From PVC group bacterium (GTDB lineage: Bacteria; Auribacterota; Erginobacteria; Erginobacterales; Erginobacteraceae), in contig JAXGWO010000011.1 in the NCBI GenBank assembly GCA_040773245.1, forward strand, positions 9,227 through 73,226: a stretch of DNA of 64,000 bases, given 5' to 3'. The translations under genes and the position numbers were made by a program. Of this stretch, positions 12,533 to 59,947 are shown piece after piece (positions within the stretch are counted from its first letter, which is position 1; every line of letters starts with the position of its first letter). The notes beneath the pieces are model-generated. The model did no database searches and was not told where the DNA came from. It worked only from the letters and a program-made list of their open reading frames with translations.

Positions 12533-12550
12533 CAGTTTTTCCTCCCGGTA

Positions 12551-31870: not shown

Positions 31871-31930
31871 GCCGCCCCGCCGTCTCCGGCGGCCACGGAC
31901 ATCCCAGGCGCTAAGAAAGGAGGAGGCCTT

Positions 31931-32803: not shown

Positions 32804-32805
32804 TC

Positions 32806-32892: not shown

Positions 32893-32904
32893 TAACGAAA
32901 TGAG

Positions 32905-40262: not shown

Positions 40263-40273
40263 AGGGGGTTGCC

Positions 40274-40672: not shown

Positions 40673-40685
40673 GGAGGGAATTAAT

Positions 40686-42407: not shown

Positions 42408-42433
42408 ACCAAAAGGACAGGGGAAATTATATT

Positions 42434-43594: not shown

Positions 43595-44577
43595 GCGCCG
43601 CCCCCCGATCGGTCTCGGTGGTCGCCCCGGTCTTCAATGAGCGGGAGAACCTCCCCGAGTTCATCCGGCGGACGGAGGCTGTCCTCGATTCCCTGGACCG
43701 GCCGGCGGAACTGATCCTGGTCGATGACGGCAGCCGCGACGGCTCTCCCGGGATTATCGCCGAGGGCGCCCGGCGGAGGCCGGGATTGATCGTCGGGATC
43801 TTCTTCAACCGCAACTACGGGCAGCACATCGCGGTGATCGCCGGACTGGAAGAGAGCCGGGGCGGGACGGTGGTCACCATCGACGCCGACCTCCAGAACC
43901 CGCCGGAGGAGATCCCCCGCCTCCTCGCCGAGGCCGATAATGGCTTTGACGTGGTGGGGACCGTCCGGACCGGCCGGCAGGACACCATCTTCCGGCGGTT
44001 CTCCTCGCGGGTCATCAACCAGTTCACCGCGCGGGCGACCGGGGTGAGGATGCGGGACTACGGCTGTATGCTCCGGGCCTACCGGAGGCCGGTGGTGGAG
44101 GCCATCCTGGAATGCCGCGAGCGGAGTACCTTCATCCCGGTCCTGGCCAACACCTTCGCCGCCCGGGTGACCGAGATCGAGGTGGCCCACGCCGAGCGCC
44201 CGGCCGGCCGGTCGAAGTACGGGGTGATGAAGCTGGTCAACCTCCAGTTCGACCTCCTGACCAGTATGACCACCTTCCCCCTGCGGCTGCTCAGCATCGT
44301 CGGGCTGCTGGTCTCTCTCTTCGGATTGTTACTGGCCGTCCTGATCCTGGTCCTGAGGCTCATTATGGGTCCGGAGTGGGCGGCCGAAGGGATCTTCACC
44401 CTCTTCGCCCTGGTCTTCTTCTTTATGGGGGGGCAGTTCATCGCCCTCGGCCTGATCGGGGAATATATCGGCCGGATCTACACCGAGGCCCGGGCCCGGC
44501 CGCGCTACTTTGTCCGGGAGAGGGCGGGCCGCTCTTCCCTCCCCCGGCCGGGAGAAGAAACCACCGGAGAAGGATAA
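43591..44577 (+). CDS. arnC: undecaprenyl-phosphate 4-deoxy-4-formamido-L-arabinose transferase-like GT2
   Basis: '[14 protein letters not shown]...[12 protein letters not shown]' GT2 DxD motif. Two C-terminal TM helices. Overlaps the aminotransferase gene by 4 nt. Confidence 0.85.
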
Positions 44578-44578
44578 G

Positions 44579-46573
44579 ATGAAAACCGTCGTCTTCGCCT
44601 ACCATTCGATCGGCTGCGCCGGCATCGAGGCCCTCCTGAAACACGGCTGGGATATCCGGGCCGTCTTCACCCACCGCGACGCCCCGGGGGAAAATATCTG
44701 GTTCCCCTCGGTTGCCGGGCTGGCCGCCTCCCGGGGGATCCCGGTCCACGCGCCCGACACGGTCAATCACCCCCTCTGGATCGAGCGGATCCGGGAGCTC
44801 GATCCTGAGATCATCTTCTCCTTTTACTACCGGAAGCTTCTCTCCGGGAAGATCCTGGAGATCCCCCCGAAGGGAGCCCTCAACCTCCACGGCTCGCTTC
44901 TCCCGGCCTACCGCGGCCGCTGCCCGATCAACTGGGTGCTGGTCAACGGGGAGAAGGAGACCGGGGTCACCCTCCATTATATGACCCCCCGGCCGGACGA
45001 CGGGGAGATCGTCGCCCGGAGGGCCTTCCCGATCGGGGAGGAGGAGACCGCGAAAGACCTCTTTGTCAAGGCCGAGGCGGCCGCCCGGGAACTCCTTGAC
45101 GAGACCCTTCCCCTCCTGGAAGCGGGCACCGCCCCCCGGACCCCCCAGGACCCGGCCCGGGCCAGCTACTTCGGGGGGCGGAGTCCGGCCGACGGCAAGA
45201 TCGACTGGGCCCGCCCGGCCGGGGAGATCTGCAACCTGGTCCGGGCGGTCGCCCGGCCCTTCCCGGGGGCCTTCTCCTTCGCCGGCGACCGGAAGTTCCT
45301 GGTCTGGAAGGCCCGGGTCGTCCCCGCCGGGGAGAAGAAATCCCCGGGGACCGTCATCGCCTCCGAACCCCTGACCGTGGCCGCCGGCCGGGAGGCGCTG
45401 GAACTGCTCGAGGTCCAGCCGGGGGATGATGTCCCGATGGCCGGCGGCCAGGCGGCCCGGGAACTGGGCCTGGTGGCGGGGTCCGTCCTCGGCGAGGGAT
45501 CTCTTCGATCGCTCTGCCCGCCGGAACCCGTCCGGGTCCTGATCCTGGGGGTGGGCGGCTTCATCGGAAACGCCCTGGTCGAGCGGCTCCTGGAGGCGGG
45601 CGGTTACGCGGTCTACGGGATGGACCTCCACTCCGGCAATATCCGGCGTTTTCTCGGCCGCCCGGGTTTTCATTTCGTGGAGGGCGATATCTCCATCAAC
45701 CGAGAGTGGATCGAATACCACGTCCGCAAGTGCGATGTCATCCTTCCCCTGGTCGCCATCGCCACCCCGATCGAGTATGTCCGCGACCCCCTGCGGGTCT
45801 TTCGCCTCGACTTCGAGGAGAACCTGCGGATCGTCCGCTACTGCGTCCGGTTCAAGAAGCGGCTGATCTTCCCCTCCACCTCCGAGGTTTACGGGATGTG
45901 CTCCGACGAGGAGTTCGACGAGCACACCAGCAACCTGGTCACCGGGCCGATCCGGATGCAGCGCTGGATCTACAGCTGCAGCAAGCAGCTCCTCGACCGG
46001 GTGATCTGGGCCTACGGGGCGAAGGAAGGGCTGCGCTTCACGCTCTTCCGGCCCTTCAACTGGCTGGGACCGAGGCTGGACAGCCTCGACTCGGCCCGGA
46101 TCGGCAGCTCCCGGGCCATCACCCAGCTGATCCTCAACCTGGTCAGCGGGACCCCGATCCAGCTGGTGGACGGGGGCGGGCAGAAACGCTGTTTCACCGA
46201 TGTCCGGGACGGGATCGGCTGCCTGGAACGGATCATCGAGAACCCGAAGGGCCGGGCCGACGGGGAGATCTTCAATGTCGGCAACCCGGACAACGATGCC
46301 AGCATCCGCGAGCTGGCCGAACTCCTCACCCGGCTGTACGAAGCCCACCCGTTGCGGGAATTGTTTCCCCCGCCGGCCGGGATCGTATCCGTGGAGTCGG
46401 GCCGGTACTACGGCCCCGGGGGCTACCAGGACGTGGTCCACCGCCGTCCGGCGGTCAGCAACGCCGCCCGGAAGCTCGGCTGGAAGCCGAAAATCGGGCT
46501 GGAGGAGGCCGTCAGCTCCACTCTCGACTTCTTCCTCCGCGACGCGGCGGAAAAACTCTGCCTGCTGGTGTAG
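44579..46573 (+). CDS. arnA: bifunctional UDP-glucuronic acid decarboxylase / UDP-Ara4N formyltransferase-like
   Basis: N-terminal formyltransferase domain ('[12 protein letters not shown]...[12 protein letters not shown]'). C-terminal SDR decarboxylase with '[14 protein letters not shown]' Rossmann motif and 'YSCSK' catalytic YxxxK. Start at ATG 44579 is preceded by GGAGAAGGA. The track's upstream extension is rejected. Confidence 0.85.
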
Positions 46574-46634
46574 CCTCCGGCCCGCTCTTAACCAGACCGA
46601 TCATTTCTCGATCGTGCTCGGTAATCGTTCTCTT

Positions 46635-46689
46635 GCCCGTACTCGTACTTGAAAATGCCTGACTTCGGGCCGAGTACGAGGACGAGTAC
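46635..46689. repeat. second copy of the GTACGA-hexamer hairpin element (REP-like)
   Basis: cccgtactcgtacttg ... ccgagtacgaggacgagtacg. Shares the exact 21-mer CGAGTACGAGGACGAGTACGA with 32857..32877. Lies between the arnA-like and arnD-like genes. Confidence 0.45.
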
Positions 46690-46714
46690 GAAGGAGATGA
46701 CGGGCAAGGAAAAG

Positions 46715-47635
46715 ATGAAGCGGCTGGGGCTGAGAATCGACGTCGATACCTACGACGGCGCCCGCAAGGGCGTCCCGGCCCTCCTCGATCTTCTCGCGGA
46801 ACACCGCGTCCGGGGCACCTTTTTCTGCTCGGTCGGGCCGGATAATATGGGCCGCCACCTGCTGCGGCTGTTTCGGCCCCGGTTCCTCGTCAAGATGCTC
46901 CGCTCCCGGGCCCCCGGGCTCTATGGCTGGCGGATCATCTTCCGGGGCACCCTCGGCCCCGGTCCCCGGATCTCCCGGGCCCTCGCCCCCTACCTGGGAC
47001 GGGCGGCCGGGGAGAAGCACGAGATCGGGCTCCACGGTCTCGACCACCATCGCTGGCAGACCCGGGGGGAGGGTTTCCGCGCCGGCCAGATCGTCGAAGA
47101 GATCAGAACGGGGAGCCGGATCATCGAGGACCTGGGCGGCAGCGTGGTCCGGTCTTTCGCCGCTCCCTCCTGGCGGGGGACCGGGGCTCTCCTCGAAGCC
47201 GAGCGGGAACTCGGATTGGCCTACGGGAGCGACTGCCGGGGGGAGTGTCTCTTCCGTCCCCTCCTCGCCGGCCGACCCTCCCCGGTTCCCCAGGTTCCGG
47301 TCACCCTGCCCACCTACGACGAGGTGATCGGCCGGGAAGGGGTCGGCGACGCCGGTTACAACCGCCATCTTTTCTCCCGCCTCCGTCCCGGCCGGCTCAA
47401 TGTCCTGGCCGTCCACGCCGAGGTCGAGGGGATGAGCAAACGGCCGCTCTTCGCGGAGTTCATCGCCGCCGCCCGGCGGGAGGGGTGGGAGTTGGTCCCC
47501 CTCGCCTCCCTTCTTCCCCCCGACCTATCAGCGCTCCCGGCCGGAAGAATGGAGCGGGGGTCGGTCCCCGGGCGGGAGGGTTGGGTGGCGGTCCAGGGAG
47601 AGAGCCAGGGAGGTGTTCCGCCGTGCGCTGGCTGA
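46715..47635 (+). CDS. arnD: ArnD-like 4-deoxy-4-formamido-L-arabinose-phosphoundecaprenol deformylase (polysaccharide deacetylase fold)
   Basis: 'MKRLGLRIDVDTYDGARKGVPALLDLL' parallels the E. coli ArnD N-terminus (GLRIDVDTFRGTREG). NodB-like His motifs 'GLHGLDHH'. Confidence 0.8.
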   Translation: MKRLGLRIDVDTYDGARKGVPALLDLLAEHRVRGTFFCSVGPDNMGRHLLRLFRPRFLVKMLRSRAPGLYGWRIIFRGTLGPGPRISRALAPYLGRAAGEKHEIGLHGLDHHRWQTRGEGFRAGQIVEEIRTGSRIIEDLGGSVVRSFAAPSWRGTGALLEAERELGLAYGSDCRGECLFRPLLAGRPSPVPQVPVTLPTYDEVIGREGVGDAGYNRHLFSRLRPGRLNVLAVHAEVEGMSKRPLFAEFIAAARREGWELVPLASLLPPDLSALPAGRMERGSVPGREGWVAVQGESQGGVPPCAG

Positions 47636-48122: not shown

Positions 48123-48512
48123 TCAGGCGCCCAATTCCTCGACTTTCTTCAGCAGGAGTCGGGGGTCGATCGGCTTTTCCAGGAACTCGGTGACCGGGAG
48201 GTAGATCTCGTCGATGTCCCGCCGGGAGAACTTGGAGGGGAAATCGCTCTCCCGGTTGACCGAGGTCAGCATCAGGATCGGGGTCCGGCCGATCTCCCCG
48301 TCGTGACGGATCTCCCGCGCCATCTTGAATCCGGCTTCCTGGTCGCCGGGGAACATCACGTCGAGGATGATCAAACCCGGGCGGAAGCGACGGATGTTTT
48401 CCAGCAGCCCGTCCCGGTCATTCTGGGACTCCACTTCGTGTCCGGCCGCCTTCAGGGTCATCTCCATAAAACCGACCATATCCACGTCGTCATCGACGAT
48501 ATAGACCTTCAT
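48123..48512 (-). CDS. single-domain response regulator (receiver only)
   Basis: 'MKVYIVDDDVDMVGFM...LIILDVMFPG...ILMLTSV' receiver motifs. Start overlaps the hydF stop (ATGA). Confidence 0.75.
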   Translation of the reverse strand: MKVYIVDDDVDMVGFMEMTLKAAGHEVESQNDRDGLLENIRRFRPGLIILDVMFPGDQEAGFKMAREIRHDGEIGRTPILMLTSVNRESDFPSKFSRRDIDEIYLPVTEFLEKPIDPRLLLKKVEELGA

Positions 48513-49771
48513 CCTTGATTCTCCTCGCGCTGTTTCCCGTTTAATCGGCCCGCCGGGCCGGAGATTAGCGGCTTCACTTCCGGGAACGGGGCCAGGGCCC
48601 GCCGGAAGATCCCTCCGCAGTAGGCCAGGGCGATCCCGTAATTGGTGATCGGGACCCCGGCCTGTTGGCACCGCATAATCCGGAAGAGCACCTCCTTCCG
48701 GTTAAACATACAGGATCCGCAGTGAATAACCAAGCGGTAATCACCGAGGTCGCCGGGGAAATCGTGGCCGGCGACCACCCGGGTCTCCACGGGGCGGCCG
48801 AGCCTGCCGGCGAGCAGACGGGGGATCTGGACCCGCCCGATGTCGTCGCCGACCGGGTGGTGGGTGCAGGCTTCGGCGATCAGGACCCGGTCCCCGGGCT
48901 GGAGGCGGTCGATGGCGAGCGCGCCTTCGGCGAAGGTCGCCAGGTCGCCCTTGAGCCGGGCGAAGAGGATCGAGAAGGAGGTCAAGGGGATCTCCGGCGG
49001 GGTGAGGCGGGCGACGGCCCCGAAGGCCTGGGAGTCGGTGACCACCAGAGCGGGCGGAGTCTTCAGGTCGGCCAGGGCCCGGGCCAGCCCGGTCTCCTTG
49101 ACCACCAGGCAGGCCGCGTCGTGGTCGAGGAGATCCCGGATGGTCTGGACCTGGGGCAGGATCAGCCTTCCCCGGGGGGCCTCGAGGTCGATCGGGACCA
49201 CCAGGACCGCCGTCTCCCCGGGGCGGATCAGATCCCCGGCGATCGGCCGGGCGGCGAGGAGATCCTCCGGCAGTTTCTCGAGCAGCCGCTGCTTGAAGAG
49301 ATCGATCCCCGCCCCCCGGCTGGCCTGGGCCTCCATCCAGGAGATCCCCGCGGCCTCCAGCCGGCCGGTCAATGTCCGGTCCGGGCGGGCTAGGTCGGAC
49401 TTGTTGAAGACCACGATCGCCGGGACCTTCTCGGCCGCAAATCGCTGGAGCAGATTCTCCTCGGATCCGCCCCATTGATCCGCCTCGGCGACGACCACCG
49501 CCAGGTCGGCCCGCTCGATCGTTTTCAGCGACCGGGCGATCCGCTGCCCCCCCAGCGCCCCCCGGTCGTCGATCCCGGCGGTGTCGATGAAGAGCACCGG
49601 CCCGATCGGGAGCAGCTCCATCGCCTTCTCCACCGGGTCGGTGGTGGTCCCCGGGGTCTCGGAGACGATCGAGATCGGCTGGCCGGTGAGGGCGTTGAGA
49701 AAGGACGACTTCCCGACATTGCGCCGCCCGAAGATCCCGATCTGGATTCTCATCCCCTTGGAGGTCTTCAT
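48509..49771 (-). CDS. hydF: [FeFe]-hydrogenase maturation GTPase
   Basis: 'IGIFGRRNVGKSS' G1 P-loop. 'DTAGID' G3. 'FNKSD' G4. C-terminal Cys cluster 'EACTHHP...IHCGSCMF' for FeS binding. Start taken as MKTSKG (track extends 8 codons further upstream). Confidence 0.8.
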   Translation of the reverse strand: MKTSKGMRIQIGIFGRRNVGKSSFLNALTGQPISIVSETPGTTTDPVEKAMELLPIGPVLFIDTAGIDDRGALGGQRIARSLKTIERADLAVVVAEADQWGGSEENLLQRFAAEKVPAIVVFNKSDLARPDRTLTGRLEAAGISWMEAQASRGAGIDLFKQRLLEKLPEDLLAARPIAGDLIRPGETAVLVVPIDLEAPRGRLILPQVQTIRDLLDHDAACLVVKETGLARALADLKTPPALVVTDSQAFGAVARLTPPEIPLTSFSILFARLKGDLATFAEGALAIDRLQPGDRVLIAEACTHHPVGDDIGRVQIPRLLAGRLGRPVETRVVAGHDFPGDLGDYRLVIHCGSCMFNRKEVLFRIMRCQQAGVPITNYGIALAYCGGIFRRALAPFPEVKPLISGPAGRLNGKQREENQG

Positions 49772-49778
49772 CTTATCC

Positions 49779-51185
49779 TCAGAAGTAAAGATCACGTTCT
49801 CCCCGTTGGGCGATCCGCTCCAGGCGGCGGCCGGTCTCCTCCCGGGTCGCCGGGTCCCCGATCCCGGCCAGCTCCCGTTCGATCAGCTTCCTCCCCGCCT
49901 CCCGGGTGGCCGGGGGGGCGTAGTCCTCCAGATACTCGGTCAGGGTGAGCAGCGCGTTGGGGGTGCAGAAGTTGCGGATGAAACCGGGGACGGCGAACTC
50001 CATAAACCTCTCCCCGGTCCTTCCCAGCCGGTAGCAGGCGGTGCAGAAACTGGGGACGAAGTCCCGGTCGATCAGGTCCCGGATGATCTCGTCCATCGGG
50101 CGGACGTCCCCGATCTCGAACTGCTCCCGCTTCAGTTCCTGGTCTCCCCGCCTGGTGTAGCCGGCCAGCTCGATCCGGGTGCCGGCGTCGATCTGGGAGA
50201 CCCCGAACTCCATCACCTCCCGCCGGATCCGCGGGGTCTCCCGGGCGGTCAGGATCATCCCGGTGTAGGGAACGGCCAGTCTCAGGACCGCGACCAGCTT
50301 CTTGAAGTCCCGGTCGGAGACCAGGCAGCGGTCGTCGAGCTTCACCCCGTGGGCCGGGCGGAGGCGGGGGAAGCTGATGGTGTGGGGGCCGCAGCCGAAA
50401 CGGTCGGCCAGAAACCGCGAGTGGGTGACCAGGCCGAGGACTTCGAACCGCCAGTCGTAGAGGCCGAAGAGGGCCCCGATCCCCACGTCGTCGCACCCCG
50501 CCTCCCAGGCCCGGGTCAGGCCGTCGAGCCGGTAGAGGTAGTCCCCCTTGCGGGTCCCCGGAGGATGGAACTTCCGGTAGGTCGGGTGGTGGTAGGTCTC
50601 CTGGAAGATCTGGTAGGTCCCGATCCCCGCCGCCTTGACCGTCCGGAAGCCGCCATAGTCGAGCGGGGCGGCGTTGACGTTCACGCGGCGGATCTCGCCC
50701 GGCCCCCGCCGGATCGAGTAGACTTTTCTCACCGTACGGGCGATAAACTCCGGGGAATAGTCCGGATGCTCCCCGAAGACCAGGATCAGCCGTTTGTGGC
50801 CGGCGTTCAGCAGCGCCTCCACCTGCCCCTCGATCTCGTCTTCGGTCAGGGTCTGGCGGACCGTGGTCCTCAGGCTCCGGCGGAAGGCGCAGTAGCCGCA
50901 GTCGTTTACGCAGTAGTTGCCGATATAGAGCGGGGCGAAGATCACGATCCGGTTGCCGTAAACTTCACGCTTGAGCTTCCGCGCGGCGGCGAAGATCTCC
51001 TCATTGAGGTCTTCCGAACCGGCGGCCAGGAGCGCCGCGGTCTCCCCGACCGTCAGGGGGACCTTCTCGAGGCTCTTGGCGATGACCTCCCGGACCCGGG
51101 CCGGGTCTTCCCCGGTTCCGGCCAGGATCTCTTCGATCCGTCCGTCGTCGATGAAATCGACCGCGTTCTTCGACAGTTCCTTCAT
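49779..51185 (-). CDS. hydG: [FeFe]-hydrogenase maturase, radical-SAM tyrosine lyase
   Basis: 'YIGNYCVNDCGYCAF' radical-SAM CX3CX2C motif. C-terminal 'SFCTACYR...C' auxiliary-cluster Cys motif. Start at MKELSKNAVDFID. The track's upstream 28 codons overlap the hybrid kinase gene and are rejected. Confidence 0.85.
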   Translation of the reverse strand: MKELSKNAVDFIDDGRIEEILAGTGEDPARVREVIAKSLEKVPLTVGETAALLAAGSEDLNEEIFAAARKLKREVYGNRIVIFAPLYIGNYCVNDCGYCAFRRSLRTTVRQTLTEDEIEGQVEALLNAGHKRLILVFGEHPDYSPEFIARTVRKVYSIRRGPGEIRRVNVNAAPLDYGGFRTVKAAGIGTYQIFQETYHHPTYRKFHPPGTRKGDYLYRLDGLTRAWEAGCDDVGIGALFGLYDWRFEVLGLVTHSRFLADRFGCGPHTISFPRLRPAHGVKLDDRCLVSDRDFKKLVAVLRLAVPYTGMILTARETPRIRREVMEFGVSQIDAGTRIELAGYTRRGDQELKREQFEIGDVRPMDEIIRDLIDRDFVPSFCTACYRLGRTGERFMEFAVPGFIRNFCTPNALLTLTEYLEDYAPPATREAGRKLIERELAGIGDPATREETGRRLERIAQRGERDLYF

Positions 51186-51189
51186 CGGA

Positions 51190-52317
51190 TCAATCCTTCC
51201 CGGCTGGCAGGCAAACGGTGAAGGTGGAACCCCGGTCGGGTTCGCTCTCCACCTCGATCCTTCCGTCATAGAGTTCCACCAGGCGCTTGAGGATCGAGAG
51301 CCCCAGACCGCTGCCCAGGACGTTTCGCGTCCGCTTGTCCTTGAGCCGGACGAACTCGCCGAAAAGCTTCTCTCTCCCCTCCGGGGAGATCCCGATCCCG
51401 GTGTCGCTGACCGAGATCGCCGTTTCCGGACCCTTCCGGGAGAGAACGATCTCCACCCGTCCGCCCTCGTGGTTGTACTTGACGGCGTTGCTGACCAGGT
51501 TGTTGAAGATCATCGCGATCTCTCCCCGGTCCGCGCGGACAACCAGGCTTTCCGGGCCGTCGATCCGGAGGGCGATCCGGCGGGAGCCGGCCTCCCAGGA
51601 CGCCAGCTCGGCCGCCTCCTTCGCCGCCCCGACCAGGTCGACCTCTTCCAGGGTCCGCTCCTTCTTTCCCGACTCCAGCCGGGTCATCTCCAGCAGGTCG
51701 GAGATCAGTTTCTTCATCTGCTCGAGCCGGAGCAGGGACCGGTTCACCACTTCCCCGTAAGGCCCGATATCCTCCCCCAGGGTCCGGTCGCGGAGGATGA
51801 AGAGGGCCCCGGCCACGGCGTTCAGGGGGGCCTTCAGCTCGTGGCCGAGAACCCGGATGAACTCGAACCGGACCTGCTTCTTCTCCGCTTCCAGGGCTTT
51901 CGCCCGCCGGGCGAGGAGGATCGCCCCGGCGGCCTTGCGGACGGCGTGCTTGAGGTCGTCCGGGGTGAACGGCTTGGTCAGGAAGTCGTAGGCTCCCTGC
52001 CGGGTGGCCGCGATCGCGGTCTCGATCGAGGCGTAGGCGGTGATCATCACCGTCAGCATCTCCGGGGAAGCGTTCGCGGTCCGCCGCAGGACGTCCAGGC
52101 CGGTGATGTCCGGAAGCTTGTAGTCGAGGAGGAGGATGTCCGGGGGTCCGGCGGCGATGGCGGTGACCGCCTCCTCCCCGGTGGCCGCGGTCTCCACCCG
52201 GAAGCCGATCTCCCCTTCGATATCGGGGAGACGGACGGAAAAGTTTTCCAGCGATCGCTCGATCCCGCCCAGCATCCCCGGCTCGTCGTCGACCGCCAGT
52301 ACTCTCAGCGTATTCAT
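51190..52317 (-). CDS. hybrid response-regulator / histidine kinase (REC-HisKA-HATPase_c)
   Basis: 'LRVLAVDDE...ILLLDYKLPDITG...VMITAY' receiver domain. H-box 'RVLGHELKAPLNAV'. 'MIFNNLVSNAVKY', 'SDTGIGI' and 'GLGLSI' ATPase boxes. Confidence 0.85.
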   Translation of the reverse strand: MNTLRVLAVDDEPGMLGGIERSLENFSVRLPDIEGEIGFRVETAATGEEAVTAIAAGPPDILLLDYKLPDITGLDVLRRTANASPEMLTVMITAYASIETAIAATRQGAYDFLTKPFTPDDLKHAVRKAAGAILLARRAKALEAEKKQVRFEFIRVLGHELKAPLNAVAGALFILRDRTLGEDIGPYGEVVNRSLLRLEQMKKLISDLLEMTRLESGKKERTLEEVDLVGAAKEAAELASWEAGSRRIALRIDGPESLVVRADRGEIAMIFNNLVSNAVKYNHEGGRVEIVLSRKGPETAISVSDTGIGISPEGREKLFGEFVRLKDKRTRNVLGSGLGLSILKRLVELYDGRIEVESEPDRGSTFTVCLPAGKD

Positions 52318-52361
52318 AGTCTTGTGGTTATTCAGGGTTGATATCTTGAGTCAAGTGATCG

Positions 52362-52454
52362 GTAGTCAGTGAGCAGTCAGCAGTCAGCTCCCACCGATTA
52401 CTGATTACCGCTTCCTATCCTTCGGAGGCTTCAGACTGCTCACTGCTTACTATT
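52362..52454. repeat. imperfect inverted repeat built from CAGTCAG/CTGACTG units (agtcagtgagcagtcagcagtcagc ... tcagactgctcactgcttact) in the intergenic gap between the receiver and hybrid kinase genes
   Basis: Seen directly in the sequence. ~20-nt arms separated by ~45 nt in a 146-bp non-coding gap. Confidence 0.35.
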
Positions 52455-52463
52455 CCCCATTCC

Positions 52464-52862
52464 CTATTCCCCAAGGAGCTTCTCCAGCTCGGCCACGATC
52501 TGCTCGGGCCGGACCGGCTTGTCGAGGAGCAGATCGGCCTTGATCCAGCTCCGCTCCTCCCGGGTGACGGCGGCGAACTCGATCCCGGTCTCCCCGGCCA
52601 CCCCGGTGACGATGATCACCGGCAGGCCGGGGTAAAGCTTCTTCGCCCGGTAGCAGAGGACGAATCCGCCGTCATCCTCTTCCAGCATCAGGTCGGCGAC
52701 CAGGGCGTCCGGCCGCTGGCGGGCCAACCGCTCTTCCGCTTCCTTCCTGGTTCCGGCCTTGAGCACCCGGTACCCGGCTGAGCGGAGGATCAGCTCCAGC
52801 TGGAGGAGGAAATCCGGGTCGTCGTCCACGATCAGGATGGTCTTAGCTTCGTTCCCGGTCAT
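52464..52862 (-). CDS. single-domain response regulator (receiver only)
   Basis: 'KTILIVDDDPDFLL...ALVADLMLE...VIIVTGV' receiver motifs. 132 aa. Start overlaps the stop of the hydrogenase-like kinase (ATGA). It is the C-terminal part of track ORF 52464..54791, whose upstream 640 codons are an off-frame artefact. Confidence 0.8.
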   Translation of the reverse strand: MTGNEAKTILIVDDDPDFLLQLELILRSAGYRVLKAGTRKEAEERLARQRPDALVADLMLEEDDGGFVLCYRAKKLYPGLPVIIVTGVAGETGIEFAAVTREERSWIKADLLLDKPVRPEQIVAELEKLLGE

Positions 52863-54907
52863 AGCGGTTGTTCTCCGGGGTCGTGCCGCGGCAGGTCGAT
52901 GGTGAACTTCGTCCCGGTCGGCCCGGCGGCGGGGTCGGCGTTCGACTCCACGGCGATCTCCCCCCGGTGCATCTTGATGATCCCGTAGGTCACCGCCAAC
53001 CCCAGGCCGGTGCCCTTGCCGATCTGCTTGGTGGTGAAGAAGGGTTCGAAAATCTTGGAGAGGTTCTCCGCCGGTATCCCCACCCCGGTGTCGCTGACGG
53101 CGATAATGACGGACCGGGGCTGGTCGGCGATGGCGATGGCGATCCTGCCCCCGTCCGGCATCGCGGCGAAGGAGTTGGTGAGCAGGTTGGTGAGGACCTG
53201 GAGGAGCTGCTCCCGGTCCACCTCCGCCACCGGGTTCTCCATCCGGTCCTGAACCTCGATGGCGACGTTCTCCGGCTTGACCACCATCCGGCAGCCTCTG
53301 GCCACCAGGTCCCGGATGTCGACCGGTTCGCGCAGAACCTTGTTCTGCCGGGAGAAATGGAGGAGCCCGTTGACGATCTTCTTGCAGCGGTCGGCCTGCT
53401 CGACGATCGTCCGGGCGTCGTTCTTCAGCCGGCTCTCCTCCTGGAGGTCTTCGAGCATCAGGTGGGCGTACATCAGAACCACCCCCAGCGGGTTGTTGAC
53501 CTCGTGGGCGATCCCGGCGGCCAGCTGTCCCATACTGGCCAGCCACTCCGACTGCATCAGCGCCTCCTGGGTGGCGGCCAGCTCCCGGTTCGACCGGGCC
53601 AGCTCCCCCACCGTCAGGTTGAGCCGGTCGATGGTGTAGGGGAGGCACATCTCGCTCTCGGCCAGGTCCTTGAGAATGGCGACGGCGTGCTCGCGGCAGG
53701 ACGGATAGCCGCAGGCGCCGCAGTTCAGTTCGTCTTCCGGCTTGAACTTGCCCATCCTCTGGAGGATGGCGGTAATATCCTCGCCGGCCGGCTGCCTCAG
53801 CCGCTGGTCGAGGTCGGCGTAGGAGCGGGAGAGGTCGAGGCCGCGGAAGGTCTCCCGGGGGTCCTCTCCGGCCGAACTCCCGGTCTCTCCGGCCCGTTGC
53901 CGGGCGTAGTCGCTGATCCGGCTCCTCCGCCGGAAGAGGGGATCGGCGGTGGACATCCCCGCCCCCATAATGCAGCCGTCGCAGGCCAGGATCTCCAGCA
54001 GCCGGGTCCGCATCCCCCCGGTCCTGAACTCCTCGATGGCGGAGGTGAACCTCCGGCCGCTGGCGGTGACCACGTCGCTGGTCAGGAGGTCCTCCTTGAG
54101 GTCGGCGGCTTGAAGCAGGCCCCCGTGGAGGGGGAAGAGCGTCCCCAGGCCGCCCCGGGGCGGGTCGAAGTCGGAGGGGGCGGCCGCTTCCGGATCCAGA
54201 CCCGATTCGGCGAACATCCGCCGCAGCTCGACGAAGGTAAGCACCTCGTCGATCTCGCCTTCGATCAGGCGGTCGCGGGACTCGATCTTCTTGGCGGTGC
54301 AGGGCCCGATGAAGACCACCCGGATCTCCTCCCCCGCCCGCTCCCGGAGGGCCCGGGCGGCGGCCGCCATCGGGGAGACAATCGGGGCCAGGCGGCCGAT
54401 CAACTCGGGGTGGTATTTCTCCACGTAAAAGACCACCGCCGGGCAGGAGGTCGCGATGTACGGGCCGCCGCCTTCGTCCAGGAGCCGGTGGTAGCGGTCG
54501 GCCACCAGGTCGGCGCCGAAGGCCACCTCGTTGACCCGGGCGAAACCCAGGCCGCGGATCATCCCGACCAGGATTCGGTAATCGAATTCCGGGAAGTCCG
54601 CCGGGAAGCTGGGGGCGACGATCGCCGTCACCGGGCGGGGGCCGCTCAGGAGGCCGCGGACCGCGGCGGTGGAGTCGGTGATCACCTTCGCCCCCTGGGA
54701 GCAGACCCTCACGCAGTTTCCGCAGCCGATGCAGCGATCGTGGAGGACCGTGGCCTGGCCCTCGATGATCCGGATCGCCTTGGCCGGGCACTCCCGGACG
54801 CAGGTGTAGCAGACCCGGCAGCGGTCGGGGGCGGTCCGGACGGCCTTGAAAATGGTGTAGTCCTTGGCCGCCGGGGATGGACTTTTGGTTGTCGCGGATC
54901 CGGTCAA
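52859..54907 (-). CDS. hydS: sensory [FeFe]-hydrogenase-like domain fused to a histidine kinase (group-C-type putative H2 sensor; ferredoxin + H-domain + HisKA + HATPase_c)
   Basis: Two 4Fe-4S ferredoxin motifs ('[12 protein letters not shown]', '[11 protein letters not shown]'). H-cluster-type motifs L1-like '[18 protein letters not shown]', L2 '[10 protein letters not shown]' and L3 '[14 protein letters not shown]'. Extra Cys cluster 'CGACGYPSC'. H-box '[15 protein letters not shown]'. 'LLTNSFAAM', 'SDTGVGI' and 'GTGLGLAV' ATPase boxes. Confidence 0.85.
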
Positions 54908-56628
54908 GTCACCACCTCGCGGCGCCGATAGGCGGTGTGGAGCAGTTGGTGGCTCTTCTCCCCCAGGGGGGCGCCGAGGAATTCCCGGTAGAGGCGCCGG
55001 ATCGATCGGTTGCGGTGGGAGACCCGGACCGCCTCCGTCCGGTCGAGCCGGTAGAGGGACTTCATTCTCTCCCGGAGGGCTTCGGGATCGGAGCTGATCG
55101 GCTGGCCGCCGCCGTTGATACAGCCGCCCGGGCAGGTCATCACCTCGATGAAGTGCGGCCTTCTCAGGCCGGCCCGGATGTCATCGAGGATCCGCCTGGC
55201 GTTGCCCACGCCGTTGGCCACCGCTACCCGCAGCCGGAGATCCCCGATCGGGATTTCGGCTTCCCGGATCCCCTCCTCCCCCCGCAGGGCTTCGATCCGC
55301 GGGTTCTCCATATCCCGTCCGGTGAGGAGGAAGTGGGCGTTGCGGACGGCGGCCTCCATCACCCCGCCGCTGGCCCCGAAGAGCTTGCCCGCCGTGGTCC
55401 GCTCGCCGAAGGGGGTGTCGGCGGTATCCGGCTCGATCCGGTCGAGGTCGATCCCCCGCATCCGGATCGCCCGGGCCAGTTCCCGGGTGGTGAGGACGGC
55501 GTCGATATCCGGCAGACCACCCCGGGACATCTCCGGCCGGCCGGCCTCGAACTTCTTGGCCGTGCAGGGCATAATCGCCACGGAGAAGATCTTCTCTGGG
55601 CCGATCCCCTCCCTTCCGGCGAAGTGGGTCTTGATCACCGCACCCATCATCTGCTGGGGGCTCTTGCAGGTGGAGAGGTTGGGGATGAACTCCGGGTAGA
55701 ACTCCTCCACGAACTTGACCCAGCCCGGCGAGCAGCTGGTCATCATCGGCAGCACCCCGTTGTTTTTCAGCCGGTCGACCAGCTCGGCGCTCTCCTCCAT
55801 TATCGTCAGGTCGGCGGAGAAGGCGGTGTCGAAGACCCGGTCGAAGCCGAGCCGGCGCAGGGCGGCGGTCAGGGCCCCGGCGATGTCCTTCCCCGGCCCG
55901 ACCCCGAACTCCTCGCCCAGGGTGACCGAGATCGAGGGGGCGTGCTGGACGACCACGAACTTCTCCGGGTCGGCCAGGGCTTCGGTCACCGACTTGATCG
56001 AGCTCTGCTCCCGCAGCGCCCCGGTGGGGCAGACCCGGATGCACTGCCCGCAGTAGACGCAGCTGCTGATGTTGATCCCTTCCCCGAAGGCGGTCGAGAT
56101 CCGGGTCTTGCTGCCCCGCCCGGTGAAGTCGATCGCCGCCACCCCCTGGACCTCCGCGCAGACCCTCACGCACTTCCCGCAGAGGACGCACTTGGCCGGG
56201 TCGCGCTCGATCGCCGGGCTGGAGATATCGAGATGTTCCACCGTCTTGGCCCCACCATAGCGGCGCTCCCGGACCCCCAGCTCCTCTGCCAGTTCCTGGA
56301 GCCGGCAGTCTCCGGACCGGACGCAGTAGAGGCAGTCGTCGGGGTGGTCGGCCAGGAGCAGCTCGACGATGGTCTTGCGGGCCCGGACCGCCCGGGGGGA
56401 GTGGGTCAGGACCTTCATCCCCCCGGCCGCCGGTGTGGCGCAGCTCGGAGCCAGCCCCGAATGGCCTTCGATCTCCACCACGCAGAGACGGCAGGCCCCG
56501 GTCGGGGTCATCCCCTCGATGTGGCAGAGAGTGGGGATCTTCCACCCGGCCCGCCGGATCACCCCCAGGAGCATCTCGCCCTTCTCGGCCTCGGTCGGCC
56601 GGCCGTTGATCTCGACCGTGATCTTCAT
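54904..56628 (-). CDS. hydA: [FeFe]-hydrogenase catalytic subunit (N-terminal 2Fe-2S and 4Fe-4S ferredoxin-like domains + H-domain)
   Basis: Start at MKITVEINGRPTE overlaps the hydB stop (ATGA). The track's upstream 148 codons are rejected. 2Fe-2S 'CHIEGMTPTGACRLC'. Two CxxCxxCxxxCP motifs. H-cluster L2 'IMPCTAKKFE' and L3 'EVMTCPGGCINGGGQP'. The L1 motif reads 'TSCSPGW' instead of the canonical TSCCPxW. Confidence 0.85.
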   Translation of the reverse strand: MKITVEINGRPTEAEKGEMLLGVIRRAGWKIPTLCHIEGMTPTGACRLCVVEIEGHSGLAPSCATPAAGGMKVLTHSPRAVRARKTIVELLLADHPDDCLYCVRSGDCRLQELAEELGVRERRYGGAKTVEHLDISSPAIERDPAKCVLCGKCVRVCAEVQGVAAIDFTGRGSKTRISTAFGEGINISSCVYCGQCIRVCPTGALREQSSIKSVTEALADPEKFVVVQHAPSISVTLGEEFGVGPGKDIAGALTAALRRLGFDRVFDTAFSADLTIMEESAELVDRLKNNGVLPMMTSCSPGWVKFVEEFYPEFIPNLSTCKSPQQMMGAVIKTHFAGREGIGPEKIFSVAIMPCTAKKFEAGRPEMSRGGLPDIDAVLTTRELARAIRMRGIDLDRIEPDTADTPFGERTTAGKLFGASGGVMEAAVRNAHFLLTGRDMENPRIEALRGEEGIREAEIPIGDLRLRVAVANGVGNARRILDDIRAGLRRPHFIEVMTCPGGCINGGGQPISSDPEALRERMKSLYRLDRTEAVRVSHRNRSIRRLYREFLGAPLGEKSHQLLHTAYRRREVVT

Positions 56629-58613
56629 TCCCGGATCACCGCCTGGAACTTGCAGACTTCGTAACAGGCCCCGCAGCCGGTGCACTTCTCCTGGAGGATG
56701 TAGTGCATCCGCTTGGCCGTCCCCTTGATCGCCCCCGCCGGGCAGTTCCGGGCGCAGATGGTGCAGCCGACGCACTTCTCGGGATCGATCCGGAAGGTCA
56801 TCAGTTCCCGGCAGGCCCCGGCCGGGCAGCGGCGCTCGTAGACGTGGGCCTCGTACTCGTCCCGGAAGAAACGCAGTGTGCTTAAGACCGGGTTGGGCGC
56901 GGACTGTCCCAGGCCGCAGAGGCTGGTGTCCTTGATCGTCCCCGCCAGCCGCTCCAGGTACATCACGCTCTTGAACCTCTCCAGGGCCCCGGTTCCCGCC
57001 GTCTTCCGGCGGCTGGTGATGGATTGCAGGGTTTCCAGCATCCTCCGGGTTCCCTCCCGGCAGGGGATGCACTTGCCGCAGGACTCGCGCTGGATGAAGT
57101 CCATAAAGAACTTGGCCACGTCGACCATACAGGTATCCTCGTCCATCACCACCAGTCCCCCCGAACCCATCATCGCTCCCACGGTCTTGAGCGACTCGTA
57201 GTCGATGTCGATATCCAGATGCCCCTCGGGGATGCAGCCGCCCGACGGTCCCCCGATCTGGACCGCCTTGTACTTCTTCCCCCCGGCGATCCCGCCGCCG
57301 ATCTCGAAGATGATCTTTCTCAGCGGGGTGCCCATCGCCACCTCAACCAGCCCGGTCCGGGCGATCTTGCCCGAGAGGGCGAAGACCTTGGTCCCCGGGC
57401 TTCCGGCGGTGCCGAACTGGGCGAACTCTCCCGGGCCCCGGGAGAGGATCTCCGGGAGGTTGGCCAGGGTCTCCACGTTGTTGATCACGGTCGGCCGGCC
57501 GAAGAGGCCGGAGACGGCGGGGTAGGGGGGGCGGGGCCGGGGCATTCCGCGCTTCCCCTCGATACTGTGGATCAGGGCGGTCTCCTCGCCGCAGACGAAG
57601 GCCCCGGCCCCCATCTTGATTTTGATCTCCAGCTTCATCCCGCTGTCGAGGATGTTGTAGCCGAGCAGCCCGTACTCGCGGGCCTGTTCGATCGCGGCCT
57701 TCAGCCGCTCGATCGCCAGGGGATACTCCGCCCGGATGTAGACGTAGGCCCGGGCGGCCCCGATCGCGTAGGCGGCGATGGCGATCCCCTCCAGCAGGCG
57801 GTGGGGGTCGCCCTCGATCACCGCCCGGTCCATAAAGGCCCCCGGGTCGCCCTCGTCGGCGTTGCAGATCAGGTACTTCTGGTCGGCGGTCGCCTCCAGG
57901 GCCACCCGCCACTTCTTCCCGGTCGGGAAGCCGCCGCCGCCCCGTCCCCGCAGCCCGCTCTCCTCCACCGCCCGGCAGAGTTCCTCCCGGGTGAGGTTGC
58001 GGACGGTGGCGGCGAAAGCGCGCCAGCCGCCGCGGGCGATGTACTCGTCGATCGACCCCGGGTCGATCACCCCGCAGTTGGCCAGGACCAGGCGGGTCTG
58101 GTCCCGGAAGAAGGGGTGTTCGTCGAGATAGGGGAGGTCCGGCCAGGCCTCGCGCCCCTCCTGGCGGTACTGACCGAGAACCAGGCCGGTCGGGATCTGG
58201 CCGTCGATCGCTCCCACCACCCGTTCCGCCTCCGCCCCGCTCACCCGGGCGAAGGAGAGCCGGTGCTTCCCCGGCATCTGGAGGTCGACAATCGGCTCCT
58301 CCGAGCAGAGCCCCACGCACCCGACCTCCACCACTTCGGCGTCGATCTTTCTCCGGGAAATCTCTTTCCGCAGATTTAGCAAGGTCTGGTCGGCTCCGGC
58401 CGCCCGGCCGCAGGTGCCGGCGCCGACGAAGAAGACCGGGCGGGTCATTTTTTCCCGCTTCAGGGCGGCGATGCGAACCCGGATCATCTCGGCGCAGTCC
58501 CGGCGGTCGTGGCAGAGCGGTCCCGAGGTGACGCAGGCCACCCGGTCCGGGCAGGGGGTCTCGCGGCTGTGCCGGCACTTCTCGCAGCATTTTTCCGTCA
58601 GCTTCAGGTTCAC
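56625..58613 (-). CDS. hydB: NADH-binding flavoprotein subunit of multimeric [FeFe]-hydrogenase (NuoF-like, with N-terminal and C-terminal FeS domains)
   Basis: 'GRGGGGFPTGKKW' FMN/NADH-site motif of NuoF/HoxF. N-terminal Cys-rich domain. C-terminal 2x 4Fe-4S 'CVGCTICARNCP' and 'CTGCGACYEVC'. Confidence 0.85.
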   Translation of the reverse strand: MNLKLTEKCCEKCRHSRETPCPDRVACVTSGPLCHDRRDCAEMIRVRIAALKREKMTRPVFFVGAGTCGRAAGADQTLLNLRKEISRRKIDAEVVEVGCVGLCSEEPIVDLQMPGKHRLSFARVSGAEAERVVGAIDGQIPTGLVLGQYRQEGREAWPDLPYLDEHPFFRDQTRLVLANCGVIDPGSIDEYIARGGWRAFAATVRNLTREELCRAVEESGLRGRGGGGFPTGKKWRVALEATADQKYLICNADEGDPGAFMDRAVIEGDPHRLLEGIAIAAYAIGAARAYVYIRAEYPLAIERLKAAIEQAREYGLLGYNILDSGMKLEIKIKMGAGAFVCGEETALIHSIEGKRGMPRPRPPYPAVSGLFGRPTVINNVETLANLPEILSRGPGEFAQFGTAGSPGTKVFALSGKIARTGLVEVAMGTPLRKIIFEIGGGIAGGKKYKAVQIGGPSGGCIPEGHLDIDIDYESLKTVGAMMGSGGLVVMDEDTCMVDVAKFFMDFIQRESCGKCIPCREGTRRMLETLQSITSRRKTAGTGALERFKSVMYLERLAGTIKDTSLCGLGQSAPNPVLSTLRFFRDEYEAHVYERRCPAGACRELMTFRIDPEKCVGCTICARNCPAGAIKGTAKRMHYILQEKCTGCGACYEVCKFQAVIRE

Positions 58614-59107
58614 TCCTCTTCTTCCTGCGAATGGTAACGCTTTAAAATGGCGGGGATGTCGTCGCCGGAGAGGTTGGCGTGGAACTGGCCGTTGACCGAG
58701 AGCACCGGGGCCAGTCCGCAGGCTCCGATGCAGGCCACCACCTCGAGGCTGAAGAGGCCGTCCCGGGTGGTCTGGCCCGGTTTGACCTTCAGCTCCCGCT
58801 CCAGCCGTTCCAGCACCGCCGCCGACCCCTTGACGTGACAGGCGGTCCCCCGACAGACCTGGATGTGGTACTTCCCCCGGGGCTGGAACCGGAACTGGTT
58901 GTAGAAGGTGGCCACCCCGTAGATCTTGCTGGCCGGAAGGTTGAGGCGCCGGCCGACCAGCAGGACCGCCTCCCGGGAGAGGTAACCCTCTTCCTCCTGG
59001 ACCCGCTGGAGGAGCGGGATCAGGGCCTCTCTCCCTGACTCCGGGTATTGGCGGATCAGGGATTCGACCGCCGCCGCCTTCTCGGGTAATCTGTTCATAT
59101 TTCCCAA
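58610..59107 (-). CDS. hydC: NuoE-like thioredoxin-fold 2Fe-2S subunit of multimeric [FeFe]-hydrogenase
   Basis: 'CRGTACHVKG...CIGACGLAP' is the four-Cys 2Fe-2S motif of NuoE/HoxE. 165 aa. Confidence 0.85.
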   Translation of the reverse strand: MGNMNRLPEKAAAVESLIRQYPESGREALIPLLQRVQEEEGYLSREAVLLVGRRLNLPASKIYGVATFYNQFRFQPRGKYHIQVCRGTACHVKGSAAVLERLERELKVKPGQTTRDGLFSLEVVACIGACGLAPVLSVNGQFHANLSGDDIPAILKRYHSQEEEE

Positions 59108-59111: not shown

Positions 59112-59768
59112 CTACTCCGGGCGGTGGCGCCGGGCCAGGCAGGCGATCTTATCCAAGGCGATCGCCATATCCATATTCTCCACGACCACCTCTTCCGGGA
59201 GCCGGAGTGTCTCCGGAGCGAAGTTCAAAATTCCCCGCACCCCGGCGGCCGCCAGTTCCCCGGCGACTTCCTGGGCGGCGGCGGCGGGGACGGTGAGGAT
59301 CGCCACCCGGATCCTTTCGCTCTCGATCACCCGCCGGAGTTCCCCCGCGGGATAAGACCGGCAGCCGTGGATCACCCTCCCGGTCTTGGCGGGGTCGGAG
59401 TCGAAGGAGGCCACGATCTTCAGCTTGGGATGATGGGAGGCGAAGAAGGGGAGGAGCGCCCGCCCCAGGTTGCCCAGGCCGACCAGGGCGACCGGCTCCC
59501 CGGCGGGGTTGTCGAGGACGTCTCCGATGAAACCGACCAGTTCCTCGATGTCGTACCCCCTCTTGGTGTTGCCGGAACAGCCGATCTCCATCAGGTCGCG
59601 GCGGACCTGGGCCGCCGTCACCCCGGCCGCGGCCGCCAGGCCGTGGGAATAGACTTTCCCCCGCCCTTCCCCGGCCAGCTTGCCCAGCAGCCGGCGGTAG
59701 ACGCTCAATCTCTCGATCGTTCTCCCGGTAATATTTTTCACCTCAGCCGCTCTTCCTTGTCTGTTCAA
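59112..59768 (-). CDS. rex: redox-sensing transcriptional repressor Rex
   Basis: 'ERLSVYRRLL' winged-helix region. 'ALVGLGNLGRAL' Rossmann NADH site. 'AILTVPAAAAQEV'. 'ILNFAP'. Track start is TTG 59768. GTG 59741 with AAGGAAGAG upstream is an alternative start. Confidence 0.85.
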   Translation of the reverse strand: MNRQGRAAEVKNITGRTIERLSVYRRLLGKLAGEGRGKVYSHGLAAAAGVTAAQVRRDLMEIGCSGNTKRGYDIEELVGFIGDVLDNPAGEPVALVGLGNLGRALLPFFASHHPKLKIVASFDSDPAKTGRVIHGCRSYPAGELRRVIESERIRVAILTVPAAAAQEVAGELAAAGVRGILNFAPETLRLPEEVVVENMDMAIALDKIACLARRHRPE

Positions 59769-59802
59769 TGGTTCACATCAACAAAATATTCTATATCTCA
59801 CT

Positions 59803-59818
59803 GTGAAATGAATCACAG
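59803..59818. promoter_or_regulatory. Rex operator (TGTGAAATGAATCACA) overlapping the rex/hydCBA promoter
   Basis: Near-palindrome matching the Rex-box consensus TTGTGAAnnnnTTCACAA. Lies just downstream of a minus-strand -35 TTGACA (59843-59848) and -10 TATCTT (59819-59824), and 35-60 nt upstream of the rex start. An additional TTCACA half-site is at 59772-59777. Confidence 0.5.
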
Positions 59819-59881
59819 AAGATACTACATAGTCCAGGGACCTGTCAAGGGCGAATCGGAAATTTTTTCAACAGAGCCCGG

Positions 59882-59910: not shown

Positions 59911-59947
59911 GCCCCATCTGTAAACGGTGTTTATATGGCAGTGGACA

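Follow-up and report, generated by a model that had tools for sequence, protein, structure and literature searches.

As of April 2026, only two sensory [FeFe]-hydrogenases had been studied, TmHydS of Thermotoga maritima and TamHydS of Thermoanaerobacter mathranii, and interaction partners have been called for (PMC13104023). Both show low turnover, CO tolerance, and stabilized reduced states (PMC8163306, PMC10055695). Forms linked to a histidine kinase are familiar from catalogs and genome surveys: HydDB names its group C1 "histidine kinase-linked (putative)" (PMC5037454), and, in two surveys, kinase-fused proteins that adjoin group A3 enzymes are called C3 (PMC11406978, PMC9324843). These surveys describe a "BfuT" protein of sub-type V clusters in Hydrogenedentota and a Caldithrix abyssi protein, WP_006928132.1, classed as C3 by HydDB (PMC11406978), as well as a C3 enzyme that carries a histidine kinase domain, again adjoining an A3 enzyme, in Ca. 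Lernaella stagnicola of the Lernaellota (PMC9324843); a kinase-fused group C hydrogenase also appears in a genome survey of groundwater Elusimicrobia (bioRxiv 10.1101/765248). Biochemical work on a kinase-fused member was not found in the searchable literature up to April 2026, in agreement with a first-pass annotation of the DNA analyzed here, which had stated that such forms are catalogued but uncharacterized (PMC5037454, PMC13104023). That DNA is a 64-kb stretch of contig JAXGWO010000011.1 from a PVC group bacterium (hereafter, the window), with a G+C content of ~65%, in which genuine genes were distinguished by high third-position G+C. It contains a hydrogenase operon in which the gene directly downstream of hydA encodes a histidine kinase joined to an [FeFe]-hydrogenase of HydS type (hereafter, the sensor). 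This protein probably acts as an H2-responsive kinase.

The first-pass annotation had read the sensor as a single polypeptide joining a ferredoxin, a hydrogenase H-domain, and a complete HisKA/HATPase_c transmitter, and Pfam searches recover this architecture (Table 1). The match to Fe_hyd_lg_C (PF02906) is full-length, spanning model positions 2–245 of 245 at 145.5 bits against a cutoff of 22.1, and the matches to HisKA (residues 459–521, E=7e-14, 52 bits) and HATPase_c (residues 564–674, E=4.5e-24, 85.5 bits) are likewise above cutoff. The gene coordinates and the quoted motifs also proved correct: ATSCPAV with its single cysteine (S154-C155), PCTAKKIE (C203, K206, E209), ACDGCIMG (C309, C312), and CGACGYPSC...C. 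An AlphaFold model built on an alignment of the sensor predicts the H-domain with a pLDDT of ~85–97, and a Foldseek search of the PDB with that model returns DdH, CbA5H, the HydA of HydABC, and CpI as top matches (E~1e-21, probability 1.00). The full-length Pfam match, the model, and the Foldseek result together exclude the alternative that the N-terminal half is only a ferredoxin- or NuoG-like domain. No NCBIfam model claims the sensor, which scores 100.7 bits against the group A hydrogenase model (cutoff 405.95) and 173 bits against the B1 model (cutoff 450).

Active-site residues were mapped through a HMMER alignment of the sensor to CpI and HydABC-type HydA structures, and conservation was assessed in 25 homologues of 58–87% identity. 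The four H-cluster ligands are retained (CpI C300, C355, C499, and C503 correspond to C155, C203, C309, and C312), as are K358 (K206), the [2Fe] pocket residues A230/P231/S232 (A98/P99/S100), P324 (P179), and F417 (F258); all of these, together with the eight N-terminal ferredoxin cysteines, are invariant in the homologues. The two L3 cysteines, C309 and C312 (window ~53972–53983), are spaced CxxC (C-D-G-C) in 24 of the 25, not CxxxC as in group A. The residues of the proton pathway have a different fate. The relay cysteine, Cys299, is replaced by S154, a position occupied by S, T, N, or A across the family; Ser319 is replaced by A174; Glu279 falls within a five-residue deletion; and E282 and R286 align to variable positions. 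Met353 and Met497, finally, have become G201 and L307, both invariant. The sensor consequently departs from the catalytic group A signatures (TSCCPxW / MPCxxKxxE / ExMxCxxGCxxG, with the Cys299-Glu279-Ser319-Glu282-Arg286 pathway), and these residues indicate that the fast proton pathway found in catalytic enzymes is missing. The features by which HydS-type proteins are defined (PMC8163306) are present, namely two N-terminal [4Fe-4S] clusters, an exact Cx2Cx4Cx16C motif, and the loss of the Cys299 relay; the sensor is also encoded next to a group A (HydABC) hydrogenase, another HydS trait. The sensory interpretation, which had been proposed on the strength of the single-cysteine L1 motif and the extra C-terminal cluster, is thereby reinforced: the lost relay, the altered Met353 and Met497, and the cluster motif all match TmHydS or TamHydS (PMC8163306, PMC10055695). 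The PAS domain that follows the C-terminal cluster in group C (M2f) in the strict sense is absent here; no PAS family was matched in Pfam at E<=0.01, and the model contains no beta-sheet at residues 317–455.

The kinase half appears equally complete. Its boxes are invariant in the 25 homologues (H468 in AHEVNNPL; N574/N578; D606-G608-G610; F620/F623; G632-G634-G636), which excludes a kinase without a functional H-box or ATP lid. The core is NtrB-like, with best matches to AtoS and ZraS, and the closest solved kinase cores are those of ZraS (E=8e-32) and KinB. Between the end of the C-terminal cluster domain (residue 423) and the start of HisKA (residue 459) lie 35 residues that are helical in the model, where a predicted helix at 422–444 begins just after Cys421 and continues toward the DHp domain. 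By its sequence, therefore, the sensor carries every residue needed for an H-cluster, three accessory [4Fe-4S] clusters, and a complete kinase core.

The sensor is not an isolated oddity of this genome. The best 120 database matches all have its whole architecture at a coverage of >=95%, and a scan of one genome per species yielded at least 589 loci, of which 80 were fetched for analysis of synteny; the family numbers hundreds to thousands. It spans more than ten phyla, including Planctomycetota, Verrucomicrobiota/Lentisphaerae, Hydrogenedentota (among the 80 loci, for example, L021, L027, L035, L052, L072, and L077), Fermentibacteria, Myxococcota, Acidobacteriota, Bacteroidota, Thermoleophilia, and others. 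Counting, for each position, the loci with enough flank, hydA lies directly upstream of the sensor gene in 55 of 69, and hydC (50/57), hydB (47/57), and rex (34/57) are found upstream as well. A single-domain receiver adjoins the sensor gene, before or after it, in 59 of 68 loci, and a kinase with its own receiver domain (hereafter, the REC-kinase) follows directly downstream in 64 of 68. The maturase genes are less constant, with hydG within 9 kb downstream at 18 of 48 loci and hydF at 11 of 48. A scan with receiver (REC) profiles found a third small receiver in ~20 loci, often directly after the REC-kinase. This conserved synteny indicates that the unit consists of hydrogenase, hydrogenase-kinase, receiver, and REC-kinase, and it is stronger evidence of a functional link than any single locus could provide. 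In four Thermoleophilia loci (L041, L060, L067, and L070), the stretch ~+1.6 to +6 kb after the sensor holds a small receiver that follows the REC-kinase and, beyond it, a second, divergent pair of hydC/hydA-like genes, an arrangement that places one sensor module between two hydrogenase gene sets.

In the window, the corresponding genes form a single compact minus-strand string, from 59768 down to 48123, in the order rex-hydC-hydB-hydA-sensor-RR1-REC-kinase-hydG-hydF-RR2, where RR1 and RR2 are stand-alone receivers. Each gene was assigned by Pfam and NCBIfam, and HydG, HydF, HydA, and Rex exceed curated NCBIfam cutoffs. The gene order proposed earlier, with two receivers and a REC-kinase flanking the sensor, hydG and hydF interleaved among them, and hydCBA directly upstream, holds throughout; the starts of hydA (56628, not the first start of its open reading frame), hydG (51188), and hydF (49771) required correction, and rex was added at the head of the operon. 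Four-base overlaps join hydB to hydA (ATGA), hydA to the sensor gene (TTGA), the sensor gene to RR1 (ATGA), and hydF to RR2 (ATGA); the REC-kinase and hydG genes are 1 base apart and hydG and hydF 7 bases, and the sole sizeable gap is the 146 nt between RR1 and the REC-kinase. From this layout, the operon is co-transcribed and probably co-translated.

Both kinds of receiver look competent. The acidic pocket, phospho-acceptor aspartate, and lysine of RR1 are >=95% conserved in 61 orthologues, and its threonine >=80%; in 68 orthologues of the REC-kinase, the acidic pocket, acceptor aspartate, lysine, threonine, and H-box are all >=95% conserved. In close relatives (L081, L083, L084, L086, L088, and L089), RR2 lies directly 3' of hydF. 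Gene order suggests the pairs sensor–RR1 and REC-kinase–RR2, and the NtrB-like core of the sensor, taken with the NtrC1-like receiver of the REC-kinase, offers a weak hint of a cross-link between the two. The term "phosphorelay", applied to this locus at first, is apt insofar as several kinases and receivers are present, and loose otherwise. The operon comprises a histidine kinase, a receiver, a receiver–kinase, and a receiver, with no Pfam match to Hpt in any of its genes; a canonical His-Asp-His-Asp relay, with an Hpt or Spo0B-like protein and a terminal output domain, is not what is found, and it is we who infer the wiring and its target. Nor did the REC-profile scan, across 84 loci, recover any conserved response regulator whose output domain binds DNA or is enzymatic.

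The maturation genes present a further complication. HydG and HydF score above their equivalog cutoffs; hydE, noted as missing at the outset, is indeed absent from the 64 kb, as tblastn with two HydE proteins matched only hydG. In collinear close relatives of 85–89% identity (L081, L083, L084, L088, and L089), the order is hydG-hydE-hydF-RR2. By blastn against L088 (89% identical), positions 2609–3704 of that locus have no counterpart in the window, amounting to a loss of ~1.1 kb containing hydE, and the alignment to L083 (15439–16791) supports a deletion at the hydG/hydF junction. Independent assemblies with an identical sensor (L086 and L087) have the same junction of 7 bases. A database search for a second hydE, using a relative's HydE, found only the relatives' operons (L088 and L089) and no copy attributable to this organism. 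The partner HydA is itself a variant, with the motif MMTSCSPGW (TSCSP, not TSCCP), such that serine occupies the position of the CpI Cys300 ligand; cysteine is kept at relay position 299, and no indel is present. This (T/S)SCSP form occurs in 67 of 75 HydA genes adjoining kinase-sensors. A compensating cysteine at CpI position 321 was considered and rejected, as it occurs with both TSCSP and TSCCP. The variant is mentioned only in passing, in two papers (PMC3787301, PMC11406978), and no biochemical study of a TSCSP-type HydA was found in the literature searched.

Our preferred reading, to which we assign a probability of roughly 60%, is that the sensor is a cytoplasmic H2-responsive histidine kinase of HydS type (group C-like), in which the PAS output would have been replaced by a fused HisKA/HATPase_c module feeding a multi-kinase network. 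H2 would be slowly oxidized at the H-cluster, with Ser154, in place of the relay cysteine, favoring H2 oxidation and the build-up of reduced states. When the relay cysteine is changed to serine in CaI, CpII, or CrHydA1, the H-cluster is retained, catalysis becomes strongly biased to H2 oxidation, and reduced states accumulate (PMC9563086). The resulting redox or conformational change would pass through the C-terminal cluster domain, and along the helix leading from Cys421 into DHp, to alter autophosphorylation of His468; the phosphoryl group would then be transferred to RR1 (Asp57) and/or the receiver of the REC-kinase (Asp65). Because the REC-kinase has no other input domain, it may serve as a second tier, setting the phosphorylation of a further receiver, for which RR2 is a candidate in this lineage, or of an unlinked regulator. 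The final output would tune hydrogenase synthesis, maturation, or fermentative electron flow to H2 partial pressure, alongside Rex, which would report NADH/NAD+ at the operon promoter. Since no DNA-binding domain is present, this output is probably a protein–protein interaction or a regulator encoded elsewhere.

Several observations weigh against this reading. H2 does not reduce the C-terminal cluster of TamHydS, and that cluster has little effect on catalysis, a result that "appears to refute" cluster reduction as the signaling step (PMC13104023); the cluster may thus have a structural and not a redox part in the route proposed here. Unless hydE is encoded elsewhere, its absence from the operon would preclude assembly of the H-cluster in vivo. 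With neither an output domain nor Hpt in 80 loci, control of "expression or maturation", as originally proposed, is a guess. The assignment of partners is also weak, drawing as it does on gene order and the NtrC1-like receiver of the REC-kinase. Pairing kinases with receivers by their likeness to solved proteins was not decisive, as RR1 and RR2 both match generic CheY/RR468-type receivers and only the REC-kinase receiver is NtrC1-like.

Among the alternatives, the one that survives best, though we consider it unlikely, is that the sensor reads the redox state of the ferredoxin or electron pool (or of the neighboring HydABC) through its Fe-S chain, with the H-cluster only venting or equilibrating electrons. 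Such a role would suit the three accessory [4Fe-4S] clusters, the invariant N-terminal ferredoxin-like domain, and the translational coupling of the sensor gene to hydA; further, electrons travel mainly through the N-terminal clusters in TamHydS (PMC13104023), and Rex already ties the operon to redox state. Strict conservation of the H-cluster ligands and the [2Fe] pocket would, however, be superfluous in a pure Fe-S redox sensor, and the sensory substitutions around the [2Fe] site (G201, L307) are invariant. H2 and the ferredoxin pool are coupled in any case, and the two readings partly merge.

The lack of an output domain can also be taken at face value. In a more speculative version, which we regard as quite unlikely, the trio of hydrogenase-kinase, receiver, and REC-kinase would be a self-contained H2 module without transcriptional output, its single-domain receivers acting on proteins directly; in this lineage RR2, whose gene is translationally coupled to hydF, would gate H-cluster maturation, or RR1 would gate HydABC activity. 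If true, the trio would amount to post-translational H2 control of hydrogenase by a two-kinase cascade, and no signal-output route would have been demonstrated earlier for a sensory [FeFe]-hydrogenase. A related proposal, which seems to us improbable, would make the sensor an additional subunit of HydABC, in keeping with the "BfuT" view, that modulates activity directly, while the kinases and receivers act post-translationally on the enzyme or HydF and not on transcription. The gene is labelled the "T subunit" of BfuABC clusters in one survey (PMC11406978), and the four-base overlaps along the operon, the constant place of RR2 right after hydF in close relatives, and the failure to find DNA-binding output at any scanned locus are all in keeping with it. 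The solved HydABC complexes 7p5h and 8a6t, going by their entry titles, nevertheless contain no such subunit, and some loci (L029 and L056) have the sensor, receiver, and REC-kinase with no hydABC within 10 kb. It is very improbable that the sensor is a decaying or non-functional copy, stranded by the loss of hydE such that neither it nor HydA can acquire the [2Fe] subcluster: clean as the 1.1-kb deletion is, and reproducible in independent assemblies, all operon genes are intact open reading frames with the high GC3 typical of expressed frames, the functional residues are all conserved, four contigs, originating from two or more sequencing runs, carry the sensor at 100% identity, and hydE may lie elsewhere in the genome.

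Transcription of the operon can be outlined from its upstream region. A Rex-operator-like site, CTGTGAttcattTCACAG, forms a perfect 6+6 inverted repeat abutting the -10 element of the putative sigma-70-like promoter in front of rex, and a scan of the whole window for Rex operators gave 2 matches against 0.45 expected; the predicted site implies that the entire operon is under autoregulation and transcribed in response to NADH. No sigma-54 promoter, which might have hinted at an NtrC-type output, was detected in the cassette, and window-wide there were 8 matches against 11.9 expected. An Rfam scan of the operon found no riboswitch or known RNA. The spacer between RR1 and the REC-kinase contains a 12-bp perfect stem, CAGUGAGCAGUC/GACUGCUCACUG, and folds at -46.8 kcal/mol (z=-2.8; 0/200 shuffles fold as well); the same spacer is longer in close relatives, at 450–610 nt. 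A classical terminator was rejected for want of a U-tract. The hairpin may act in the processing or stability of the mRNA, dividing the hydCBA-sensor-RR1 half from the REC-kinase-hydGF-RR2 half.

Table 1. Features of the hydrogenase operon in the window, in the direction of transcription, with the domains of the sensor
Feature	Position	Strand	Evidence
Sigma-70-like promoter TTGACA-18-TATCTT, 5' of rex	59819..59848	-	Consensus scan, 10/12 positions; consensus match only
Rex-operator-like palindrome CTGTGA-ttcatt-TCACAG, directly 3' of -10 element	59801..59818	.	15/18 positions vs TTGTGAAnnnnTTCACAA
rex, redox (NADH/NAD+)-sensing repressor	59112..59768	-	Pfam Put_DNA-bind_N + CoA_binding; NCBIfam NF003995, 194 bits vs cutoff 126
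hydC, NuoE-like [2Fe-2S] subunit	58610..59107	-	PF01257, E=8e-52
hydB, NuoF-like FMN/NADH subunit, C-terminal 2x[4Fe-4S]	56625..58613	-	Complex1_51K, NADH_4Fe-4S, Fer4; NuoF_pre_CCxxC prefix domain
hydA, catalytic [FeFe]-hydrogenase subunit, 574 aa	54904..56628	-	NF040763, 797.5 bits vs cutoff 765
Sensor, HydS-type [FeFe]-hydrogenase fused to histidine kinase, 682 aa, TTG start	52859..54907	-	Pfam, motifs, AlphaFold/Foldseek
Sensor: Fer4 dicluster, residues 24-73, C30/33/36/40 + C59/62/65/69	54689..54838	-	Fer4 family matches
Sensor: H-domain, residues 92-316, ligands C155, C203, C309, C312	53960..54634	-	PF02906, E=2.8e-42
Sensor: C-terminal [4Fe-4S] motif Cx2Cx4Cx16C, residues 394-423, C396/399/404/421	53639..53728	-	PF04060, E=7e-9
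Sensor: HisKA (H468) + HATPase_c transmitter, residues 459-674	52886..53533	-	Pfam
RR1, stand-alone receiver, 132 aa, D13/D14, D57, T86, K115	52464..52862	-	Response_reg, E=2.4e-15
Spacer RR1/REC-kinase, 146 nt, structured	52318..52463	-	RNA fold
REC-HisKA-HATPase_c kinase, 375 aa, D65 acceptor, H159	51190..52317	-	Pfam
hydG, radical-SAM H-cluster maturase	49779..51188	-	TIGR03955, 485 bits vs cutoff 312
hydG/hydF junction, hydE slot in close relatives, empty here	49772..49778	-	Alignments to L088, L083
hydF, H-cluster maturation GTPase/scaffold	48509..49771	-	TIGR03918, 534 bits vs cutoff 326
RR2, second stand-alone receiver, 129 aa, D51 acceptor, last operon gene	48123..48512	-	Response_reg, E=7e-14

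The strand change 3' of RR2 and a divergent cluster 5' of rex leave the operon well delimited as a unit. Convergent with its end is an Arn-like cluster for the modification of lipid A with aminoarabinose (39339–47635, plus strand), comprising a PMT_2 transferase, a DegT aminotransferase, a GT2 protein, an ArnA-like formyltransferase/epimerase fusion, and a polysaccharide deacetylase; the relative L088 has the same neighbors. Divergent from rex (59927–63631, plus strand) are genes for a MerR regulator, a homocysteine-biosynthesis (HcyBio) protein, a NIL-ferredoxin protein, and a class V aminotransferase/cysteine desulfurase-like protein, a sulfur-incorporation cluster beside an Fe-S-rich operon. 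Elsewhere in the window, a molybdenum/tungsten cofactor riboswitch (30971–31091, plus strand; RF01055, 69 bits) precedes a DUF2490 gene and a molybdate/tungstate-type ABC transporter (31199–34616). The stretch at ~12000–20000 has a lower G+C content (54–58%, against ~65%) and is bordered by a tRNA-Ser(gct) at 19129–19222; it contains two PHO4 phosphate transporters, a dCache-HAMP histidine kinase (16821–18599), an NtrC-type sigma-54 activator (15494–16849), and, on the minus strand at 15217–15232, a good sigma-54 promoter match, TGGCATAGGATTTGCT. This stretch, which has no connection with the hydrogenase cassette, may be an island gained by horizontal transfer. The two-component system that it encodes (15494–18599) was likewise judged unrelated to the sensor, being 35 kb away, beside phosphate transporters, and equipped with its own sigma-54-like promoter.

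Neither TmHydS nor TamHydS has a known partner or read-out for the H2 signaling that is proposed for "sensory" [FeFe]-hydrogenases. A kinase in the same polypeptide, with receivers next door, offers a built-in assay, through the effect of H2 on autophosphorylation and phosphotransfer. The family, being widespread in anaerobic fermenters and syntrophs of many phyla, may set the feedback of H2 partial pressure on fermentation; the value of the present observations lies in this family rather than in a single locus.

For comparison with the two studied proteins, their residues were taken from published descriptions. Like the sensor, TmHydS (group C, M2f) has two N-terminal [4Fe-4S] clusters, an H-domain, the Cx2Cx4Cx16C motif, a lost Cys299 relay, and glycine in place of Met353, and it is encoded with a HydABC-type hydrogenase (PMC8163306, PMC10055695). 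It ends, however, in a PAS domain and has no kinase, where the sensor has HisKA and HATPase_c and no PAS; its relay residue is alanine instead of serine, and its counterpart of Met497 is serine instead of leucine. TamHydS (group D, M2e) shares with the sensor the absence of PAS, the accessory clusters, and leucine at Met497, but its kinase-like protein is encoded by a separate gene. At Met353 it has serine, the hydroxyl being a hallmark of group D, in contrast to the glycine that is invariant in the sensor family, as in group C. T. mathranii has an adjacent AraC regulator, whereas the sensor locus has no DNA-binding regulator other than Rex.

A similar logic governs the regulatory [NiFe]-hydrogenase systems HoxBC-HoxJ-HoxA and HupUV-HupT-HupR (HydDB group 2b), in which hydrogenase genes are governed by a histidine kinase under the control of a hydrogenase module of low activity. 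Their metal site and fold are unrelated, and sensor and kinase are separate proteins joined through a PAS-like domain of HoxJ. The output of HoxA/HupR-type systems is an NtrC-type DNA-binding regulator, and the hyd cassette described here has none.

The nearest counterparts remain the kinase-fused group C enzymes of the surveys, with which the sensor is provisionally equated by architecture, context, and taxa. They too carry a kinase module instead of PAS and lie next to group A3 HydABC, with Rex nearby. The survey passages searched mention neither receiver and REC-kinase partners, nor a missing output domain, nor residue features, and a keyword look-up of "response regulator" in PMC11406978 gave 0 occurrences. 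Relative to these passages, the receiver and REC-kinase partners, the systematic lack of an output domain, and the PAS-less link from cluster to DHp are aspects that we have not seen described, and they are incremental. The fused architecture and its HydABC/Rex context have already been noted several times in papers on metagenome-assembled genomes, and the sensor joins a known, catalogued kind.

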